From the NCBI RefSeq assembly GCF_007559345.1, contig NZ_VMBH01000003.1, forward strand, positions 30,602 through 54,601: 24,000 nt of DNA, given 5' to 3'. Under the pieces are notes generated by a model. That model was not told where the DNA came from, did no database searches, and was given only the letters and a program-made list of their open reading frames with translations. Origin of the DNA: Cardinium endosymbiont of Dermatophagoides farinae (GTDB lineage Bacteria > Bacteroidota > Bacteroidia > Cytophagales > Amoebophilaceae). The position numbers and the translations under genes were made by a program. How positions within the stretch are numbered: the stretch's first letter is position 1; each line of letters begins with the position of its first letter. Shown here piece by piece: positions 8,046 through 20,251 of the stretch.

Positions 8046-9962
8046 ATGGCATTCGCAACATTTAACATCAAGGGCTACCAAAAAGGTTTAATAGGAATTG
8101 GTAAACACATAGATCGTTCTTGTCAGGAAGCTAAAAAAACAGGTGTATTTGAAGATTCAGAAGAGAAAGATTTGGTTTCAGAACTAGGCTTACATATAGA
8201 TCCCTCTAGAACATATTTAAATGAAGAGTGGGTCGATACAGGTGGTAAATCATTATCTGAACTTGTTGAACAAAGGATATCAGAGGGCTATAAATTATCT
8301 AAATCTATTCGATCAGATGCTGTTAAAGCTTTGGGTTTAGTTATGACTGGTAGTCATGACCGAATGAAAGAAATAGAGGCTAATGAAAAATTATTTGAGG
8401 GTTGGAAAAAAGCTAATTGGGATTTCGCTTGTAAGGAGTTTGGTGGAGAAAAAAATATTGTTCGATTTTCTATACATAGGGATGAAAGGACACCACATAT
8501 TCATTGTGTAGTAGTTCCAATTACTCCAGATGGAAGGTTAAGTGCTAAGCACTATCGACATGGTACGATTAAGTTGCAAGGCTATCAAAATAGATATGCA
8601 GAAGCTATGTCTCCTTTTGGATTGGAGCGTGGAATAGAAGTTTCATTAACTGGGAGAAAACATACGACATCAAAGGAATACTACAAAAGTATTAATAAAA
8701 TTGAAAGGGAAGTATCAATAGAAACTAAACATATAAACACTTTAAATCCCTTTCACCGTGAACAAGCCAAAGAGGAGTTAGAAAAAGTACAGGATAAGCT
8801 CCGTTCCTTAGAAGAAGAAAATAGAGGCCTTAAACAAGAAGTTATCTATTCTAGAAATACGCATAAAACGCTTATAGAGAATCGAATTAAAGATGATCTA
8901 GAAAAAGTGAAAAGAGAAGTTAATTTGATCCAACATGCTGCTTCTATGGGTTATGTTTTAGATAAAGAAAAAAGTTCCAAAAACTGGGCCGTTATGGAAA
9001 AAGAAAGTGATAAAATTTTGATTAAAAATGGGCCTAATCAAAATGGTCACTGGATGTATAAATCTTTGGTAGACGAACAAGAGAAAGGAACTATTGTGGA
9101 TTTTATGCAAAAACGTGGGTTTAGTTATCAGAGTATTTGTGGGTTGTCTAGTAGGCATTTAGATGATCGGATTGTTAAAGATCAAAAATCTTTATCTGTA
9201 GAAATAGGGGATGTTTTTTCACAGTGTCATATCGCTCGAGAGGTGTTTGACAGGGTTGTTGAGCATCAGAAAGGTAATTACTTGACTTGTAGAGGTATTG
9301 ATCAAACTACCTATGAGTGTTATACAGGTGTTAAAGTAGGTAATCAAGCTGTATTTGCTTTATACAGGAATATAGATAGCAACGGGAAAGGTACTATATG
9401 CAGCACTATTAGCTACCAGTTTGATGCTAAAGGTACCATGTCAGATGATGGATGTTTTAATAGCACTAAATACTTCCAAAAAGGGCTGCCTCGCGGGTTG
9501 TCTGTTTTGGTTGAGTCTGGTCTACCCGTAAAGCATATTGTGGTCTCAGAAAGTCCTATAGATGCTTTAAGTTATAAGCAGATGAGTAGTTCTTTGAAGG
9601 GCACTATGTATGTGTCTACTTGTGGTAGTTTATCTGAAGGGGTTAAAAGAGAGCTCTCAAATGTGTTGTCTAATGCTAGGGAGAATGGGTGGTCTGTAAC
9701 GTTGGCTTTTGATAGTGATAAAGCGGGTAGGAAGATGGATGAAGAGGTCCGTAGGTTGGCTGATGCGTGTCTGGTAGACTGTAGATCGTCTATACCCTAT
9801 CAGTTTAAAGATTGGAATGAAGAATTGGTATCTGGTTTAGGAAGGCAAGAAATGCTTAGAAAACTCCAAAAGGAGTTGGTAACTAGTGGGCAGGAGCACG
9901 AGTTGCGTAAGAAACGCGAAAGGGGGCCGACCGTGATGGGTATGGAAATTACTTGCGATTAA
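8046..9962 (+). CDS. MobV-family (Pre/Mob, PF01076-type) relaxase fused to DUF3991-like and Toprim domains
   Basis: N-terminus MAFATFNIKGYQKG...GKHIDRS. The MobV signature HxDExxPHxH appears as HRDERTPHIHCVVVP (nt 8475-8504). A central coiled coil follows (EELEKVQDKLRSLEEENRGLKQE). The segment ILIKNGPNQNGHWMYKSLVDEQEKGTIVDFMQKRG is DUF3991-like. Toprim acidic residues are VVSESPIDAL (E at 9549-9551) and AFDSDKAGRKMDEE (DxD at 9711-9719). Confidence 0.9.
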   Translation: MAFATFNIKGYQKGLIGIGKHIDRSCQEAKKTGVFEDSEEKDLVSELGLHIDPSRTYLNEEWVDTGGKSLSELVEQRISEGYKLSKSIRSDAVKALGLVMTGSHDRMKEIEANEKLFEGWKKANWDFACKEFGGEKNIVRFSIHRDERTPHIHCVVVPITPDGRLSAKHYRHGTIKLQGYQNRYAEAMSPFGLERGIEVSLTGRKHTTSKEYYKSINKIEREVSIETKHINTLNPFHREQAKEELEKVQDKLRSLEEENRGLKQEVIYSRNTHKTLIENRIKDDLEKVKREVNLIQHAASMGYVLDKEKSSKNWAVMEKESDKILIKNGPNQNGHWMYKSLVDEQEKGTIVDFMQKRGFSYQSICGLSSRHLDDRIVKDQKSLSVEIGDVFSQCHIAREVFDRVVEHQKGNYLTCRGIDQTTYECYTGVKVGNQAVFALYRNIDSNGKGTICSTISYQFDAKGTMSDDGCFNSTKYFQKGLPRGLSVLVESGLPVKHIVVSESPIDALSYKQMSSSLKGTMYVSTCGSLSEGVKRELSNVLSNARENGWSVTLAFDSDKAGRKMDEEVRRLADACLVDCRSSIPYQFKDWNEELVSGLGRQEMLRKLQKELVTSGQEHELRKKRERGPTVMGMEITCD

Positions 9963-10635
9963 GAGAGAGGGTATTCCTGGTATGTGTCTATATGTGTTTA
10001 TTTTATAAAAAAACAGAATAATATACTTGTTTTATATTTATAAGTCTGAATATCATGTATTTATATTTTTATGAAGTGTTTTTTTGTGTAAAATGGCACT
10101 TCGTATACATATAAAAAATTGATAACCAATAATATAAAGTATGTTTTTACATATATTTTAGTTGGAGTAGTAAAATGATACTTTATAGCGAATATTATTC
10201 TATCATAATGAATAATATAACTGTTTATTATGTATTTAGTGAAGTATTATTGATATAGAAAGACACTTCATATATATATAAACTAATATTCTGTTCCATA
10301 AAATATTTAATTATTTTATATTGATTTGTAGTGTTTTATAAAAATATGATTCCATTATAAAGATGATGAAATTCCTTATTATGAGTTATAATAGAATTTT
10401 TTGTATTGAAAATCAATTATAAATTTATAAATTTTTATATTATTCTCATAACCAATGTTAAACTTGTTGTAGAATTTTAGTATAAAGTATTTATAACTGA
10501 TTTGACATGATATTTCAAATCTATTCTTTACCTGTTTTTTCTGAAGTAGATTTTCTGAGCATAAAAATATTTAAATATCTGATTACCAATTAATATTTTT
10601 ATACCTATATAGAAGGATAGTAAGATATTATATAA

Positions 10636-10658
10636 ATGTTACTATAGATGTTACTATA
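10636..10658. repeat. Tandem direct repeat atgttactata (2 copies, 12-bp period)
   Basis: atgttactata g atgttactata read directly at 10636-10646 and 10648-10658. Confidence 0.9.
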
Positions 10659-10675
10659 TCACTTATAGTATTTAT

Positions 10676-10694
10676 AATATTGATAATCAATATT
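10676..10694. repeat. Perfect 19-bp palindrome aatattgat-a-atcaatatt
   Basis: 9-nt arms and a 1-nt centre, verified by reverse complement. It contains one copy of the dispersed motif GATWAYCAAT (other copies at 10121-10130, 10447-10456, 10581-10590). Confidence 0.9.
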
Positions 10695-10717
10695 ATATAT
10701 ATTTGTATTACACTAAC

Positions 10718-10837
10718 ATAGTAAGATAGTAAGATACTAGTATTATTTTATTTATGTAATATATAATAATAACATATACATACATATGTGTATATATATT
10801 TTATTATATATACACAATAATCTTACTATCTTACTAT
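10718..10837. repeat. Large inverted repeat: 18-bp iteron pair atagtaagatagtaagat / atcttactatcttactat flanking an alternating-TA/CA quasi-palindromic core
   Basis: The left arm (10718-10735) and right arm (10820-10837) are exact reverse complements. Each arm is itself a direct doublet of TAAGATAG. The centre holds catatg (10783-10788) inside atatacatacatatgtgtatatat. Confidence 0.9.
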
Positions 10838-10882
10838 TATTATTATAAAAATCTGTATTTCAGCGTAATATGATTTTTTGTA

Positions 10883-10915
10883 ATCTTACTAAGATCTTAC
10901 TAAGATCTTACTAAT
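10883..10915. repeat. Three head-to-tail 11-bp iterons atcttactaag/atcttactaag/atcttactaat
   Basis: Read directly. The 11-bp period is about one helical turn. Each junction creates the palindrome ATCTTA-c-TAAGAT, so the same TAAGAT half-site used at 10615-10627, 10718-10735 and 10820-10837 recurs. Confidence 0.95.
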
Positions 10916-11324
10916 AGTTACTATTTCCATATTAAAATGTTCGGTTTTTAGCCTAAAACATTGGTTAGTTAGACTATGTTAAGTTTATGTAAATCATCTA
11001 AATACGTATTAATCGTATGTTACGCATTGCAAAACGTATGATATTTTAGTTTTTTATTGATCTATAGCACTTTATACAAATAACAGTTGGTATAGATACT
11101 TGGTTATCTATACTATACTATATGATAATTACATCTGTAAACTGTGTGGCTCGTTTTCTTATTAATAATGCATATTTATAGGCTAAATATGTTGAAACGA
11201 CATATTATGAGTTCTGAGTTTTTCTCCAAAAGTTGAACGATAAGCAGCTTAAAAGAAAAATTAGTAATTTAGCTTCCGCATAATAATTTAAATCCTCAAT
11301 AAGAAAATATGATTTTATATAAGA

Positions 11325-11684
11325 ATGTATTATATTGGAACCATGTATAATAAAGGCATAAAAACATTCGAGGAATTTTTAGAAAATCCTTTTTTAGGTG
11401 AGAATATTGGAAATGCTATAGATATAGAATTTATGCTAAGTCTTTCTAAACCAGCTCAAAATATTATAAGATATATGGTGAAAAAAAAAACGTGTTTAGA
11501 AGATAAATTTTTATTTGACGTAGATGATTTTAATAAATTTTCAGGGTATAAATCTAGAGCGGTTTATCTTAAGGGTGTTATTGATCTAATCATGAAAAAC
11601 GTTTTAGCAAAAACGAAATTGCCTCATTTATATTGGGTCAATAAAGGTATCCTAGATAAGTCATCTTTGATAAGTGTAATGTAA
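11325..11684 (+). CDS. Small conserved protein, paralog family A (winged-helix-like DNA-binding protein suspected)
   Basis: 119-aa ORF; the more likely start is Met7 at 11343 (MYNKGIKTFEEFLENPF). It shares blocks with ORF 22246..22611: FEE.ENPF, NII[RK]Y[ML], E[ED]KFLF....FN[KR]F, VLAKTK.P.LYWVN. It lies at the edge of the iteron region, upstream of the primase-helicase. Confidence 0.7.
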   Translation: MYYIGTMYNKGIKTFEEFLENPFLGENIGNAIDIEFMLSLSKPAQNIIRYMVKKKTCLEDKFLFDVDDFNKFSGYKSRAVYLKGVIDLIMKNVLAKTKLPHLYWVNKGILDKSSLISVM

Positions 11685-11800
11685 CAAGAATCATCAAAGT
11701 ATAAAAAACCCTCCGAAGAAGGCTTTTTCTTACTTTAATTTTGGTAGGGAACCGAAATGAGTGTAAGAACCAGTTTCCAAACGGATTAAAATTCCAGCTT

Positions 11801-14083
11801 ATGATAACAAAAGAACAAATCCTGGAAAAGGTAGGGGGAGAGGAATATCTCATCCGCTACTTGGTTCCTACATTTAATTCAAATGTAAGAAAAAAAAATT
11901 ACAAATCTATATTTTCTGAGAAAGATGATAGACCAAGTATGTCTATTTATAAGGAAAAAAGGACAGGTACGTTAAAATTTAAATCTTTTAATACGGGTCA
12001 TCAGGGAGATGCCTTTAGGATGTGGGCGGATTATTATGGATTAGACTGTAAAACACAGTTTAAGGAACTTTTAGAACTCATTAACCAAGAGATGTGCTTG
12101 GGTTTGAATACTGAAAAGAAATCAAGAGTTGTTCCAAAATCAATTTTTCCTAATTTACCAACTGTTAAAGACATTGGAGTATCTTCACCTTCTCAAACAC
12201 TTCGTATTGAATACATGTCTGATTCAGAATCTTTTATTTCTAGATTATATCTAAAATACTGGCTACAGTATGGTATTGACCAATCTGTTTTAGGAAAGTT
12301 TGATGTTAAACAAGTAAGTTTTTTATCTTATACCGCTAACTCAGGTCGTTATTTGTCTTTTAAATACTTTGAAAAGCATCAGGTTGTATCGGCCTATCAT
12401 GTATCAGGTAGAGTTAAAGTATATATTCCAGAGATATCACCTTCATTTTCTAGTGATCCTTTTTTTAAAGGTCAGAAAAAATCATTTTCGTATAAGAATC
12501 AAAATAAAGATGATGTTTTTGGGTTGGTTCAGTTACCTGAAGGAAATTTAGACTATGTACTGTTTACAGCAGGGGAAAAAGATTGCATGAGTGCTTATGC
12601 ACATGGGTTTAGCAATGTTATTTCTTTACAGTCTGAGCACCAGATGCCTAGTGATGATCTGTTGAGAATTTTACGTAGTAAGACTTCCGTACTATTATGT
12701 TGTTATGATAATGATGAGGCAGGAAAGAATGCTTCTAAGAAGTTACAAGATTCTTTTGGTATTGTATCCGTTGAATTACCAGGAGATGTAAAGGATATAG
12801 CAGAATACTTTAAAAAGCATACTACTGCTGATTTCCAGTTACTTATAGATTATGGTATACAACAGGTAAAATCTATTTCTGTAAATTCTATTGATATCCA
12901 TAGGGTTAGGAAGTTAAGTAATACTAAACGCAGTAAAGTGAAAGCCTATTTAAGTAATAAGTTCAATTTTCGATTGAATGTAGTTACTCAAGAGCGTGAA
13001 ATGAGTACTAAGCGTAATCCTGATTTATGGGAAAAAGTTAACGTAAATGAACTAAGAGATAATTTAGATAGACATGGTTTTGAGTGTAATTTGGACTTAA
13101 TTAATTGTATATTAAAATCGTTTTTTGTAGGGCGTTTTAATCCTATAGAGTCATATTTTTTAGCTTTCGAAGGAAATGAATCTTCTGGTAATGAAGACTA
13201 TATTCATAAATTAGCCAGTTATGTTAATTTAAAGGATTCTACGTTTAATAATAATCAATATTGGTATACGCATCTTAAGAAATGGATGATTAGGGCGGTA
13301 CGTACGGTTTTTGAGGATGGAGAAATCAATAAACATGCTTTAATCTTATGCTCATCTAAAGAAAATATAGGTAAAAGTTATTTTTGTAGATTTTTGTGTC
13401 CTCCTACTCTTAGGAGATATTACAATGGTAATCCGATTATAAGCAATGAAAAAGATGCTCAAAAGGCTCTTATAAGAAACTTTATTATAGACTTGGATGA
13501 GCTACATCAGCTCCGTTCTAACTCAGAGGTAATTAAGACTTGGCTGTCTCAGCCTTATATTAATGTACGTTTGCCTTATCAGGAAGATGAAATAACAGCA
13601 TCACGTATAGCTTCTTTTGTAGGTAGTACCAATAATATTGAATTTTTAAGGTCAGGTTTGGGTAATAGTAGATGGATTAGTTTTGAAATAGATTCCATTA
13701 ACTATTTAGATGATGAGGCTATATATATATTAGAGAAAGCCTGGGAACAAGCCTATAGTTTGTATAAATTAGATCACGGTAGTGGGGAACTACGTGAAGA
13801 AGAATTTTTAGAGTTAAAAACTCGTTCTAATCAATTTAATACTAAGTCTACAGAGTCTGAATTGATAGTCCAGTATCTTTATCCCTCTACTAAGGAAGAA
13901 GGTGAGTTTATGACTACTACTGATATATTGAGATATATACAGAATATTGTTGGTACTACTATTAGATTGAATACTAGATTGGTAGGCAGTGCTCTAAGAG
14001 AATCAGGGTTTATTAGGGTTATGTATGGTAATTTAGATAGGGGACCTTTGTATGGCTATTTTGTTCAAAAGTTAAATGTTTAG
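11801..14083 (+). CDS. Primase-helicase: DnaG-like Toprim domain fused to a VirE / D5-type P-loop NTPase
   Basis: Toprim motifs are YVLFTAGEKDCMSAY and LLCCYDNDEAGKNASKKL...DVKDIAEYF. The C-terminal P-loop is SSKENIGKSYF (GKS at 13370-13378) with Walker B IIDLDELH. I prefer ATG 11801 (MITKEQILEKVGG), because the track start at 11741 is a TTG. Confidence 0.85.
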   Translation: MITKEQILEKVGGEEYLIRYLVPTFNSNVRKKNYKSIFSEKDDRPSMSIYKEKRTGTLKFKSFNTGHQGDAFRMWADYYGLDCKTQFKELLELINQEMCLGLNTEKKSRVVPKSIFPNLPTVKDIGVSSPSQTLRIEYMSDSESFISRLYLKYWLQYGIDQSVLGKFDVKQVSFLSYTANSGRYLSFKYFEKHQVVSAYHVSGRVKVYIPEISPSFSSDPFFKGQKKSFSYKNQNKDDVFGLVQLPEGNLDYVLFTAGEKDCMSAYAHGFSNVISLQSEHQMPSDDLLRILRSKTSVLLCCYDNDEAGKNASKKLQDSFGIVSVELPGDVKDIAEYFKKHTTADFQLLIDYGIQQVKSISVNSIDIHRVRKLSNTKRSKVKAYLSNKFNFRLNVVTQEREMSTKRNPDLWEKVNVNELRDNLDRHGFECNLDLINCILKSFFVGRFNPIESYFLAFEGNESSGNEDYIHKLASYVNLKDSTFNNNQYWYTHLKKWMIRAVRTVFEDGEINKHALILCSSKENIGKSYFCRFLCPPTLRRYYNGNPIISNEKDAQKALIRNFIIDLDELHQLRSNSEVIKTWLSQPYINVRLPYQEDEITASRIASFVGSTNNIEFLRSGLGNSRWISFEIDSINYLDDEAIYILEKAWEQAYSLYKLDHGSGELREEEFLELKTRSNQFNTKSTESELIVQYLYPSTKEEGEFMTTTDILRYIQNIVGTTIRLNTRLVGSALRESGFIRVMYGNLDRGPLYGYFVQKLNV

Positions 14084-14218: not shown

Positions 14219-14836
14219 ATGAATACAAATAAATTTAAAATTATATTGTTCTTATGCGTAATAGGAGTAGTTGGGTGTAACAAAATAGAGAATCCAAGTT
14301 ATATGGATGGCGGAGGTGATAAACCTAAAGAAGTACCAGCGTTGAAATCTTCTATATCCGTTGCGCAAGGTAGTTCTACTACAGCTATTGTTAAGGGATT
14401 CAGTAAAAGTTATGATGAGGCACTGCAATCTTCCCTCAGTTCTATGAAATGTGTAGCTGATACTGCAAAGCAGGTTTCTATTAATAAGCAAGAGGCTGCT
14501 GAACGTGCGATTAAGGCTGCTTCCGATGCTAAAATTGCAGCAGAGATGACACGTAAGGCTGCTGATGATGCAGAAAGAAACACACCAGAATTAGGTGGAG
14601 ATAATACTTTGTATAATAAGGCGTTTCAGGATACTCTTAGTTCTATGAAATGTGTAGCTGATACTGCAAAGCAGGTTTCTATTAATAAGCAAGAGGCTGC
14701 TGAACGTGCGATTAAGGCTGCTTCCGATGCTAAAATTGCAGCAGAGATGACACGTAAGGCTGCCGATGATGCAGAAAGAAACACACCAGAATTAGGTGGA
14801 GGTGATGCTTCTACCTCAACAGGGAGTAAGACGTAA
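14219..14836 (+). CDS. Lipoprotein with an internally duplicated alpha-helical module; function unknown
   Basis: The signal/lipobox is MNTNKFKIILFLCVIGVVGC. The module SSMKCVADTAKQVSINKQEAAERAIKAASDAKIAAEMTRKAADDAERNTPELGG occurs twice. Confidence 0.8.
   Translation: MNTNKFKIILFLCVIGVVGCNKIENPSYMDGGGDKPKEVPALKSSISVAQGSSTTAIVKGFSKSYDEALQSSLSSMKCVADTAKQVSINKQEAAERAIKAASDAKIAAEMTRKAADDAERNTPELGGDNTLYNKAFQDTLSSMKCVADTAKQVSINKQEAAERAIKAASDAKIAAEMTRKAADDAERNTPELGGGDASTSTGSKT
14438..14800 (+). repeat. Tandem duplication: two 162-163-nt copies, 201-nt period, 1 mismatch
   Basis: Copy 1 (14438-14599) and copy 2 (14639-14800) are identical by direct comparison. The one exception is t14563 versus c14764, a synonymous change (gct/gcc Ala). 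Confidence 0.95.
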
Positions 14837-16356: not shown

Positions 16357-16789
16357 TTAAAAAGACAATTAGCTCAATAGAACGATTCAAAAAAGATTGA
16401 TGCAAGACAAAAAGCTCACTAGCTATCTCTTTTAAATAATAGCCTAATGCTTTAACACCACTGTTCCAACTATGTGCAAACTGAGGCCGTTGTCATAGGT
16501 ATATAGTATAGTTTTGGTATAGTTTTTGGTGTTATTTTTTCTATTAAGGAGCCATGTATTTTATTTTTTATTGATTTTCAATGTTATTTTTTATATTTTT
16601 GTTCATTTTAGATAGACCATCCCCTAAAGACCTCTTAATATGATATTTGGGGCTCTATATAAGTTATAGGCTATTGCTTCCATAACATGTTTCGTATGCG
16701 TTTTATCAAGTCTTATATAACGGGCTTTTCCGCTTCTGAACCAGCTTTGTTAGGTAGGAGGAGGGTATTACTATCCTCCTCCCCCTTAG

Positions 16790-16823
16790 AAACGCAGCTT
16801 GCGAGTTTCCCCGCACTACGCTT
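16790..16823 (-). ncRNA. Group II intron domain V (34 nt)
   Basis: AAGCGTAG-TGCGGG-GAAA-CTCGCA-AG-CTGCGTTT. It has the AGC catalytic triad, a 2-nt bulge, a GNRA (GAAA) tetraloop, and both helices pair (with G-U wobbles). Confidence 0.85.
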
Positions 16824-16830
16824 GGGCCCC

Positions 16831-18399
16831 TTATCTAAGTCCTGTTGTTCTAGAACCGGCTTGTCCGTCATGGTTTAACTTCTTTTGTGGTGACACTAGC
16901 AGTAGTGAATTTTCTTTTGAGAATGAGCTCCTCAATATCTTTGTACGAGTTGCTCTTTCTTCAAAATACTTTTTCCATCTTATATCTAGCGGATTTGCAT
17001 CTGCTCTGATTTTAACATGTCGTCTTATAGGTATATCGCTTAGTTTTAATAAGCGCATTTCCTTTGATTGGTTTCCTGCTATAGATGAGGCAAAGACCCA
17101 TTGGCGCGAACCTCTTATCTTAAAATAACGGTTCTTTATCCAACGTAATCCTTTGCATGGATGTCTTCTCTTTGCCCATCTCCATAGTGACTGCATAACT
17201 TCATGGTCTATTTTACTAAAAGCTTGCTTAGCGCATACATGGCGATAATAGTTTCCCCAACCTCTTAATATTGGATTGAGTAATTTAATGATTATTGCCT
17301 GTGTATTTGCTCTGTTTGCTTTTATTAATGTACGCGCTTTCTTAAGAATGTTCTTGATACCTTCTTTTGAAGGTTTTATGATCAGTTTCTTATTGTATTT
17401 GCGTACATTACAACCAAGAAAATCAAACCCTGCATTAACGTGGGTAATTTTTGTCTTTTCTTCTGATAAGGTAAGCCCTCTTTCAGAGAGAAAGGAAGAT
17501 ATTAATGGCTTAACTTCATCTTCCAGTATTTCACGCGTGTTTCCTGAAATAATGAAGTCGTCCGCATAACGGATTATGATTACTCCACTTCTGAGTCTTG
17601 CTCTTTTTGTACTGCCAATTTTTCCAAAGCGTTCTTCTAATAATCTTTCGAGCCCATCTAAGGTCAAGTTAGCTAGTACCGGAGAGATAATACCGCCTTG
17701 CGGGGTGCCTACCGTTGTCTGGTACAGTGTTTTCGATTCTAGGAAACCGGCTTTTAACCAGTTATTAAGTATCCGTTTTTCTATAGGGATGTGTTTAATA
17801 AGCCATTCGTGGTTAATATTATCAAAACAGCCTTTGATGTCGCCCTCTAGTATCCATTTTGGACGCTTGTCCGCTGCAAGTAGTATATGACTCGCTTGGA
17901 TAGCGTCTGCGCAGGATCTTTTCGGTCTAAAGCCATAGGAATTTCGATCACTGGTTGTTTCAGCTATCGGTTCCAGTGCAAACAAATATAATGCTTGCAT
18001 AGCTCTGTCACGCATCGTGGGTATTCCAAGAGGTCTTCTTTTGCCATTGGATTTACTAATGTAGATCCGTTTTAGCGGAGAAGCTTTGTATCCTCTCTGT
18101 TTTAATTGTTTTATGCCTTGAAATTTAGTCTTGTCAGTCGACCATAATTGACGATCTATGCCTGATGTCCTTTTGCCTTGATTTTCCGTCACTCTCTTAA
18201 CGGCCAAAGCTTTGCCACTAAAAGACCGTGTTAAAAGATGTTGTAAGGCTTTTACCTTACCCCATCTTCCTTTTTGGACCGCCTTAACAATACGTCTTTG
18301 TAGCCGCATAACAACTTTTTGGCATTTTTTCCAGGGTAGCTGGTGCCATGCTTGGGAGTTATCGGTAGGTGCACTTACGCTATATAAACATGTAATCAT
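16831..18399 (-). CDS. Group II intron reverse transcriptase/maturase (no obvious HNH endonuclease domain)
   Basis: 522 aa. Motifs seen: WHQLPWKKCQKVVMRLQRRIVKA, RIYISKSNGKRRPLGIPTMRDRAMQ, GTPQGGIISPVLANL, IRYADDFII (YADD), and maturase X motif LNPILRGWGNYYRH. The C-terminus has no CxxC/HNH pattern. Confidence 0.95.
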   Translation of the reverse strand: MITCLYSVSAPTDNSQAWHQLPWKKCQKVVMRLQRRIVKAVQKGRWGKVKALQHLLTRSFSGKALAVKRVTENQGKRTSGIDRQLWSTDKTKFQGIKQLKQRGYKASPLKRIYISKSNGKRRPLGIPTMRDRAMQALYLFALEPIAETTSDRNSYGFRPKRSCADAIQASHILLAADKRPKWILEGDIKGCFDNINHEWLIKHIPIEKRILNNWLKAGFLESKTLYQTTVGTPQGGIISPVLANLTLDGLERLLEERFGKIGSTKRARLRSGVIIIRYADDFIISGNTREILEDEVKPLISSFLSERGLTLSEEKTKITHVNAGFDFLGCNVRKYNKKLIIKPSKEGIKNILKKARTLIKANRANTQAIIIKLLNPILRGWGNYYRHVCAKQAFSKIDHEVMQSLWRWAKRRHPCKGLRWIKNRYFKIRGSRQWVFASSIAGNQSKEMRLLKLSDIPIRRHVKIRADANPLDIRWKKYFEERATRTKILRSSFSKENSLLLVSPQKKLNHDGQAGSRTTGLR

Positions 18400-19210
18400 T
18401 TGCTTTCCTTCCTTAAGTGGTTAACAAAGTTTCTTGTCACGAGGGACCTAGTGGAAGTCTGCTTGCTTTCGCATGGGTTGATCTTGCAAACCCTATCCAT
18501 GCCGTTACAGAATGGCGTTCGCTTTCTCCACTTTCCTTTACCTGCATGCTCAACAGCTTTCCTTACGGATTACCTGCCTTTGATAAAGGCGAGCATACAG
18601 GCTTACCCTGTTCCTTCTACCATACTTCGGTGATTTAGGTGGCTTCAATATACCGGTGGACTTATTGTTTGCGTACATCCAGTATTAAAAAAATGTATCC
18701 TTTCCACGTACCATTTTGGTTTGAGCTTGTCAGCATCTTTAGCTCATTTTTGGTAACGATACTTGTTAAAACTTCACTTACGTTCACCATATCACTAGCC
18801 TAGACCTCCAACCGCATGATGCTTGCAGTTTATGCACATCTCGCGATGCTGCATTTTCTCTTTTTTTTTTCAAGAAGAGGTTCATTGTCCGTGTCGCTTA
18901 GCACCAATCGGTTGCCCAATTCGCACCGATACGTAGGCTCAGATGGCAAAACATCTGGTTTAATAAGGCTCTAATGTGTTACCTCTTGCGAGGTTCATTT
19001 CATCTCCTTTTAAACAATACAGTAGAAGACTTTCAGGTCGCACTAATACTACCAAATACACGTTCTACTTTGTAGCGTGTTTCACCACCAATTTATTAAA
19101 CCGCTTAGCAGTAGATGATAAGGGATGGTTTCTAGTAGCTTTCTTTTGAATAGCTGATTTAGGGTATTAAGGGTATTAGGCAAAATCGTCCGTAAATACA
19201 CGCTAAGCGC

Positions 19211-19999: not shown

Positions 20000-20251
20000 C
20001 TAAATACAATATTTTGAGAAAAATTCTTTTAATGCTTTAGAAATAATGAATGAATTACTGATTCCTAATTCTTCTGCATATTTAGATAGTTTAGTATGTA
20101 ATCCTTTATCCATTTTTATAAGGTATTTACCCATGTTAGGTCTAATTGGTCTTCCTATTTTTTTCCGTACTATGGCTTGTTCACAATGCTCTTGCAATGA
20201 GATAGAAGCCTGTTTTTGATTTATATTTTGAAATGGATTATTTGAGCTCAT
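20000..20251 (-). CDS. Ribbon-helix-helix (CopG/ParG-like) DNA-binding protein, partner of ParA
   Basis: 83 aa. The C-terminal segment KYLIKMDKGLHTKLSKYAEELGISNSFIISKALKEFF fits a beta-strand/helix/helix RHH pattern. It lies immediately downstream of parA in the same orientation. Confidence 0.6.
   Translation of the reverse strand: MSSNNPFQNINQKQASISLQEHCEQAIVRKKIGRPIRPNMGKYLIKMDKGLHTKLSKYAEELGISNSFIISKALKEFFSKYCI

Follow-up and report, generated by a model that had tools for sequence, protein, structure and literature searches.

The DNA analysed here is a stretch of 24,000 nucleotides (contig NZ_VMBH01000003.1 of assembly GCF_007559345.1, positions 30,602 to 54,601), referred to throughout as the window. 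It is 99.9% identical to plasmid p_B of the Cardinium symbiont of the mite Dermatophagoides farinae and belongs to contig C2 of the five-contig genome. With its Bacteroidota-type tra genes, T4 coupling protein (T4CP) and MobV relaxase, the window represents a conjugative plasmid of Cardinium (Bacteroidota). The element under study is a cluster of short repeats in the AT-rich gap that separates mobV from a small gene, which is itself followed by the gene of a primase-helicase (Table 1). We interpret these repeats as the predicted iterons of the plasmid's vegetative origin of replication (oriV).

Table 1. Positions, strands and remarks for the repeat module of the window and the genes around it
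Feature	Position	Strand	Remark
AT-rich intergenic gap, 1.36 kb, 79% A+T	9963..11324	.	mobV to small gene; predicted origin module in right half
Left block, direct copies: degenerate + exact iteron agaaggATAGTAAGAT, 8-bp period	10611..10626	+	
Left block, inverted variant iterons ATGTTACTAT x2 (minus strand ATAGTAACAT), 12-bp period	10636..10657	-	
Perfect 19-bp palindrome around TTGATAATCAA box	10676..10694	.	
Core left doublet ATAGTAAGAT-AGTAAGAT, 8-bp period	10718..10735	+	
Spacer, 84 bp, 88% A+T, centred on CATATG; predicted unwinding element	10736..10819	.	
Core right doublet, exact reverse complement of 10718-10735	10820..10837	-	
Right array, four iterons, 11-bp period: three exact, fourth the variant AGTTACTAT	10883..10926	-	
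MobV relaxase fused to Toprim domain	8046..9962	+	neighbour; module does not require mobV
Small 119-aa winged-helix protein, family A	11325..11684	+	
Terminator-like hairpin + T-run, then conserved leader up to 11800	11706..11730	.	between small gene and primase-helicase gene
Primase-helicase, 760 aa from ATG 11801	11801..14083	+	listed open reading frame begins at TTG 11741
C-terminal winged-helix domain of primase-helicase	13850..14071	+	
Helix 3 RLNTRLVGSALRE	13964-14002	+	kept in 18 of 21 proteins
Wing (beta-hairpin) RVMYGNLDRGPLYGYFV, residues 739-755	14015..14065	+	sole part covarying with iteron word

A sequence-only reading of the window had quoted four arrangements of the hexamer TAAGAT, and all four were verified: ggatagtaagata at 10615-10627, the doublet atagtaagatagtaagat at 10718-10735, its exact reverse complement at 10820-10837 (18 of 18 positions, separated by 84 nt) and a run of three 11-bp units. 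The sole deviation concerns the third of these units, which reads atcttactaaT, with T instead of G. The bare hexamer shows no enrichment window-wide (27 occurrences against 33.5 expected), yet 10 of the 27 lie inside 300 bp. The longer word AGTAAGAT occurs nine times where 1.9 copies are expected per 24 kb, and at least nine copies were seen in 0 of 100 shuffles; eight copies are packed into 294 bp (10619-10912), leaving one for the remaining 23.7 kb. The true repeat unit is longer than the hexamer, and the cluster is genuine and far beyond chance. A motif-agnostic scan of the 1.48-Mb genome for any 6-mer doublet of 8-bp period with an exact inverted copy 40-140 bp away returned the window module and its paralogues only.

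Beyond the four quoted arrangements we found two copies of ATGTTACTAT (10636-10657), a degenerate copy at 10611-10618 and a fourth 11-bp unit at 10916-10926, which brings the total to 12 sites in three blocks. The left block holds two direct and then two inverted sites, the core a direct doublet, a spacer and an inverted doublet, and the right block four inverted sites. The spacer has a purine-pyrimidine alternation of 0.80, and positions 10753-10812 within it form the least stable 60-mer of the gap and the second least stable in the 24 kb (dG of -53.7 against a mean of -71.7, standard deviation 5.4). Searches of the gap (9963-11324) for the DnaA box TTATCCACA with at most one mismatch found none. 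A promoter-like scan gave background levels (18 observed, 20.3 expected), and Rfam had no match in the gap, its sole match type being a group II intron.

The same three-block layout was found upstream of related primase-helicases in 21 modules, located on pcBtQ1 of the whitefly Cardinium, on the co-resident plasmid p_A, at four further sites of the genome including a chromosomal remnant, on pCher (two modules), in strains cEina3 and cEhis1 and on metagenome contigs. A convergent left block is followed by a pair of inverted doublets, which enclose an AT-rich tract of 80-105 bp, and then by a phased array of 10-11 bp units. The doublet period is 8 bp (7-9 bp in three distant modules), and the two doublets lie 84-106 bp apart, start to start, across the AT-rich tract. 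The degenerate-plus-exact doublet of the left block is also present in pcBtQ1 and p_A. What changes from module to module is the word: the classes are ATAGTAAGAT, AGAGTAAGAT, AACGTAAGAT, AATGTAAGAT, GT[AG]GTAAGAT, TAGGTAAGAT, ATAGTCAGAT, TATGCCAGAT, AAGGCCAGAT, GTTGA[CT]AGAT and TGGGACAGAT, and some modules likewise use GTGGTAAGAT and GGTTGACAGAT. Every word class terminates in ..AGAT or a close variant.

When the primase-helicases of these modules were aligned, they diverged sharply in one short stretch near the C-terminus. The Hamming distance between iterons correlated with the distance between these stretches, the wings of a winged-helix domain, over the 21 modules (Mantel r=0.59, nominal p=5e-5), and it did not follow the helices of the same domain (r=0.00) or the rest of the protein (r=-0.13). 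Controlling for the rest of the protein left a partial correlation of 0.62 (p=5e-5). Because the wing region would otherwise have been picked after inspection, the whole protein was scanned with 257 sliding windows of 18 alignment columns each: the top six windows all fell on the wing (r 0.42-0.59), against an all-window mean of -0.07 (standard deviation 0.12). Five predictions from wing to word were recorded before eight further look-ups, and four of them (P0014, P0017, P0018, P0021) were borne out.

The enzyme of cEina3 contig 49 gives a further comparison. Over residues 25-270 of the listed 780-aa open reading frame (ORF) it is pcBtQ1-like (87-94% identity to pcBtQ1), and over residues 521-690 it is window-like (87% identity to the window); both the wing and the accompanying iterons are those of the window. 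This natural chimera supports the mapping of specificity to the wing.

The sequence-only reading had named three candidate binders of the repeats, and the primase-helicase, one of the three, is the protein whose wing covaries with the iteron word. For the small family-A protein, the correlation with the word over the 16 modules that have both proteins (r=0.22) vanished once the wing was controlled (r=0.016, p=0.41); the reciprocal control left the wing at r=0.68 (p=5e-5). Over 18 modules the small protein and the word correlated at r=0.31. The small protein of the window shares 67-68% identity with its counterparts in GGTTGACAGAT-type modules and only 29-32% with those in modules that use the window's own word, and several modules carry an unrelated protein of ~70 aa in the small-gene slot while their iteron classes are nonetheless shared. 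Judged from these sequence comparisons, the weak small-protein correlation is one of linkage. The family-A protein would then be a regulator of the replication operon and not the determinant of iteron specificity. The third candidate, a ribbon-helix-helix (RHH) protein at 20000-20251, lies 9 kb away, and no link between it and the module was found.

The primase-helicase matches the Pfam family PF05272 (E=5e-26). Its start is most likely the ATG at 11801 (MITKEQ...), as its homologues suggest, rather than the TTG at 11741. The Toprim motifs AGEKD (12569) and YDNDEAG (12704) keep their acidic residues, and the VapE-like helicase retains Walker A (GKS at 13370) and Walker B (DLDELH at 13490). A profile of the primase-helicases, searched against PDB sequences, matched Rep1 of the Staphylococcus aureus pathogenicity island SaPI1 (7PDS) over the helicase core, residues 408-628, with E=3.6e-12; the alpha protein of phage P4 gave no PDB sequence match at E<=1 in the same search.

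An AlphaFold2 model of the last 161 residues shows a canonical winged helix of order H-b-H-H-b-b, with a predicted local distance difference test (pLDDT) score of 86-91 over most of the winged-helix region and ~71 at the wing tip. In this model the covarying stretch coincides exactly with the b2-turn-b3 wing. The good local matches that Foldseek found for the tail were all winged-helix DNA binders, the best being RFX DNA-binding domains (8ZJR_M, template modelling (TM) score 0.66; 1DP7_P, TM 0.63) at 13-14% identity. The RFX proteins are eukaryotic transcription factors, unlike a plasmid primase-helicase. In RFX1 (1DP7) the major groove is read by the wing and not by helix 3, which fits a specificity that maps here to the wing beside a nearly invariant helix 3 (RLNTKLVGSALRE). 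The small family-A protein, too, has a generic winged-helix fold.

We conclude, with a probability of roughly 0.8, that the repeats are the iterons of a Cardinium plasmid oriV and that the plasmid's own Toprim-VapE primase-helicase, whose gene lies 0.9 kb downstream, acts as the initiator. Given the homology of the helicase to SaPI1 Rep, the best reading is a SaPI-type origin for a self-loading helicase. Pfam found no classical Rep gene among the ORFs of the window or in a related circle of ~20.6 kb, as the sequence-only reading had noted for the window; in this circle, the smallest related one, no recognisable replication protein besides the primase-helicase was detected. That reading had called the repeats iteron- or centromere-like and had assigned them to a dimeric protein acting on palindromes on one helical face. 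The iteron and origin part of this description holds. The right array of the relatives is made of plain direct repeats, so the palindromic ATCTTA-c-TAAGAT junctions are peculiar to the window copy, and the SaPI Rep homologous to the likely binder is a hexamer; both speak against the palindromes and the dimer. The centromere part does not stand either, as the window has no ParA/ParB and the repeats track the primase-helicase.

In the mechanism that we propose, each site of ~10 bp would be read by the C-terminal winged-helix domain of the primase-helicase, with the variable 5' half (ATAG in ATAGTAAGAT) contacted by the variable wing and the conserved 3' half (..AGAT) by helix 3, which hardly varies. 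Two helicase rings would form on the inverted core doublets (10718-10735 and 10820-10837) and open the 84-bp AT-rich tract between them, and the fused Toprim primase would start synthesis with no need for DnaA. The convergent left block and the phased 11-bp array on the right may be auxiliary, with a part in cooperative loading, in copy control or in autoregulation. Initiator supply would be controlled by the small winged-helix gene together with the terminator-like hairpin and leader; by analogy with pRN1-type repressors, the product of the small-gene slot, winged-helix or RHH-like, probably acts in this way.

Several observations weigh against this interpretation. Kinship among the modules means that the Mantel p-values overstate independence, and the iteron consensus words were taken from k-mer tables by eye. 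The relation of wing to word is not one-to-one: the distant module P0027 combines the pcBtQ1 word with a different wing, and the fifth recorded prediction failed at P0006, whose wing has RVMY but RRGFFV in the second strand and whose iterons are ATGCCAGAT. The 'RVMY' wing class as first defined was too coarse, as P0006 revealed. The Foldseek E-values for the tail are weak (0.06-0.3, best 0.058), and neither the C-terminal domain of SaPI Rep nor the origin-binding domain of P4 alpha was among the top 50 matches. Cumulative GC-skew minima fall ~2.5 kb from the repeats, at the divergent T4CP/mobV junction, in the window and in contigs C1 and C4, and the minimum of C3 is nowhere near the module; skew is confounded by gene orientation. 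The plasmid p_A (C3) persists despite a split cognate initiator gene. The origin would also lie upstream of its initiator gene, not immediately downstream as in SaPIs.

Three other functions were considered for the array. That it is an operator only, bound by the primase-helicase or another factor and regulating the operon of the small gene and the primase-helicase or else mobV, with replication starting elsewhere, is improbable. Its position upstream of the operon, ~100-140 bp from the right array to the small gene in some modules, would suit such a role, as would the ~2.5-kb distance to the GC-skew minima, and initiators that bind their own iterons for self-regulation are common among plasmids. 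However, the distance from the array to the small gene ranges from 98 to 432 bp among the modules, and the inverted doublets, at a conserved spacing of 80-105 bp, enclose the part of the gap where the duplex is weakest, which is the logic of an origin and not of an operator. The searches turned up no further origin-like element and no other Rep gene, and the promoter-like scan stayed at background.

We give still less credence to an origin of transfer (oriT) or accessory site for the adjacent MobV relaxase-Toprim protein, or to a parS-like partition centromere bound by a small adaptor, be it the family-A or the RHH protein. The array does lie directly downstream of mobV, and conserved hairpin units in the mobV-proximal half of the gap could be relaxase sites. 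Yet p_A (C3) and the modules L046, L049 and L055 keep the iteron architecture beside a primase-helicase without a complete adjacent mobV, which argues against an oriT; the upstream neighbours are a 272-aa Toprim-only ORF in L046, a coupling-protein gene in L049 and a NikA-like gene in L055. Moreover, the repeat word follows the wing of the helicase, and inverted doublets around an AT tract are unlike the hairpin-plus-nick oriTs of MobV plasmids such as pMV158. As for a centromere, short phased repeat arrays are typical of type I centromeres, and in several relatives ParA and a protein of ~87 aa are encoded just downstream of the primase-helicase. Against it stand the lack of ParA/ParB in the window, the loss of the small-protein correlation once the wing is controlled, the sharing of iteron classes among modules with unrelated small proteins, and the AT-rich tract between inverted sites, for which a centromere has no role.

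The intergenic gap contains further conserved elements. Boxes of the TGATAATCA type (GATWAYCAAT) occur four to six times per gap, in the window at 10121-10694 (for example 10680-10690) and in L002, L003, C4, L052 and L054. The TTGATAATCAA box sits between the iteron blocks in all modules without covarying with the iterons. Since the TGATAATCA-type box, which every module has between its iteron blocks, is constant while the iteron word varies, it is probably bound by a second conserved factor, either a host protein or a conserved domain. On its mobV-proximal side, half of the gap consists of two to five units of ~100 bp, in each of which a (T)CATAATCAG box comes after an inverted repeat (window 9963-10600; L005 500-1000; L040 1600-2100; L043 540-1150). 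The stems differ by lineage, GAAGTGTC/GACACTTC versus AAACCCCT/AGGGGTTT, and such units are candidates for oriT or single-strand initiation signals.

Downstream of the small gene, the hairpin with its T-run and the leader ..ATGTAAGAA.TAGCCTTTCAAGGGATTAAAA.. are kept in 13 modules, and changes in the stem appear to be compensatory; this hairpin and leader (11706-11800) possibly form an attenuator of initiator expression. The alternative ~70-aa protein of the small-gene slot (genome G000 C1 ~67100-67300, minus strand; L040 2684-2890; L043 2022-2243; L049 2190-2405) has the pattern MN.KE.KI.RNYS.KMS.E.Y..LR... and resembles a ribbon-helix-helix protein by eye.

Some modules are incomplete. The chromosomal remnant (G000 C5, 572.9-576.2 kb) includes mobV, a small gene and a complete set of iteron blocks, whose word is AAGGCCAGAT, and lacks a primase-helicase; its intact cognate enzyme, P0009 with the wing RMKYHMLDRRGYFV, is found on the metagenome contig L053. 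In p_A (L003 2078-8318, equal to G000 C3) an insertion of ~3.9 kb with a serine recombinase gene splits the primase-helicase directly behind Walker A, and no other enzyme of the p_A wing class was found in the same genome. Of the two modules on the 57.8-kb pCher (L032, L033), the first has the word GTAGTAAGAT and the second, in which the primase-helicase is frameshifted, has ATAGTAAGAT. In the module of cEina3 contig 36, the contig end leaves only the N-terminus of the enzyme. A Sphingobacteriaceae outgroup (L041, 34% identity) was rejected as a further example, as it has 11-bp TTTGCACA arrays beside a tRNA fragment and not the Cardinium layout. At 570-880 of this locus, which comes from a metagenome-assembled genome, two phased 11-bp ATTTGCACA arrays flank the tRNA 3' fragment, and a VapE-only helicase follows 2 kb downstream; the locus may represent an integrated element that has a repeat system of its own.

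The window module is present twice on C2 (7239-25487 and 36354-54705), within an 18.4-kb repeat whose copies are 98.9% identical with 121 indels, which may be a duplication or an assembly redundancy; a decay of the second copy, once suspected, was only apparent and is explained by this repeat. Terminal overlaps of contigs C1, C3 and C4 imply circles of ~75.7, 31.5 and 20.6 kb, respectively. Elsewhere in the window, a 201-bp tandem duplication (1.8 copies, 99% identical) lies at 14438-14801 inside a 205-aa ORF that follows the primase-helicase gene. The minus strand carries a complete group II intron at 16749-18958, with Rfam matches to D1-D4 and domain V-VI and a 522-aa reverse transcriptase/maturase.

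A text search of two Cardinium genome papers (PMC3486910 and PMC4007549) returned no account of plasmid replication and no mention of iterons, primase or plasmid origin; Penz et al. term pCher a "large cryptic plasmid". The present analysis names a likely Cardinium plasmid replicon, with its origin, initiator and probable regulator. A replicon is the first need for vectors in this unculturable group of symbionts, which manipulate arthropod reproduction. The modules also provide 21 naturally occurring pairs of protein and DNA, with a hairpin of ~17 residues as the predictor of a ~5-bp word, and so a compact recognition table for winged-helix wings that can be tested. If the proposed assignment is true, exchanging the wing RVMYGNLDRGPLYGYFV for RSVNKKLYGYFV would shift preference to AACGTAAGAT.

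Such variation may explain the coexistence of several closely related plasmids in one cell. Besides the chromosomal remnant, the genome holds five modules on plasmids, and in each of them a different word predominates (4 of the 11 sites in C4 are common to C2). More tentatively, and with the balance tilting against it, the wing could be a fast-evolving, recombining specificity cassette that lets paralogous replicons coexist, and the three-block layout a distinct origin grammar. Cointegrates would then carry two origins, and the outer blocks, one with convergent sites at 8-20 bp from each other and one a phased 10-11 bp array, would add a function absent from SaPI origins, for example copy-number handcuffing or coupling to the neighbouring transfer region.

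Among known systems, Rep_3-type plasmids (pSC101, R6K, RK2) place initiator sites beside an AT-rich unwinding element and fall into specificity classes similar to incompatibility groups. They have tandem direct repeats of 17-22 bp, a Rep of WH1-WH2 type and DnaA boxes, and they use the host DnaB/DnaC. The window differs in having no such Rep family and no DnaA box, and its repeats are of 8-11 bp in both orientations. The alpha protein of satellite phage P4 unites primase, helicase and a C-terminal winged-helix origin-binding domain in one polypeptide and acts on octamer iterons, direct and inverted; the small regulator gene cnr lies just upstream of alpha, and a second distant site, crr, is required. 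No second repeat cluster that could be a counterpart of crr exists in the window. On pRN1 a gene for a small DNA-binding repressor (orf56) precedes a large primase-helicase gene (orf904) in the minimal replicon (PMC4234260). The Cardinium module is unlike that of pRN1, which has a prim-pol primase, a stem-loop origin region downstream instead of an iteron array, and an archaeal host.

Phage-inducible chromosomal islands (PICIs) are integrated islands with an integrase, a helper-phage-responsive repressor and packaging-interference genes. The window, a plasmid with tra genes, is not such an element; only its replication module is SaPI-like. SaPI Reps are self-loading helicases that serve as initiators and recognise iterons of 5-6 nt through a C-terminal winged-helix domain, in origins where 6-12 iterons surround an AT-rich centre, at least two per side and in opposite orientation; in SaPI5 the primase and Rep are fused (PriRep5) (PMC9371898). 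A further trait of the Pri-Rep-ori type is an initiator that binds and melts its cognate origin with neither ATP nor a loader. The Cardinium module resembles this Pri-Rep-ori arrangement in its homologous VapE-like helicase, its fused primase, as in SaPI5, and its C-terminal winged helix, in its 12 sites with opposed doublets flanking an 84-bp tract of 88% A+T, and in the absence of DnaA or a separate loader. Unlike in SaPIs, the predicted origin is found 0.4-1 kb ahead of the initiator gene in all 21 modules, with the small regulator gene in between. The words are of 8-10 bp instead of 5-6 and are accompanied by two extra blocks (convergent left, phased right), and the replicon itself, a conjugative plasmid from a Bacteroidota endosymbiont, is no phage satellite. 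The design as such has precedents, namely SaPI Rep and P4 alpha.

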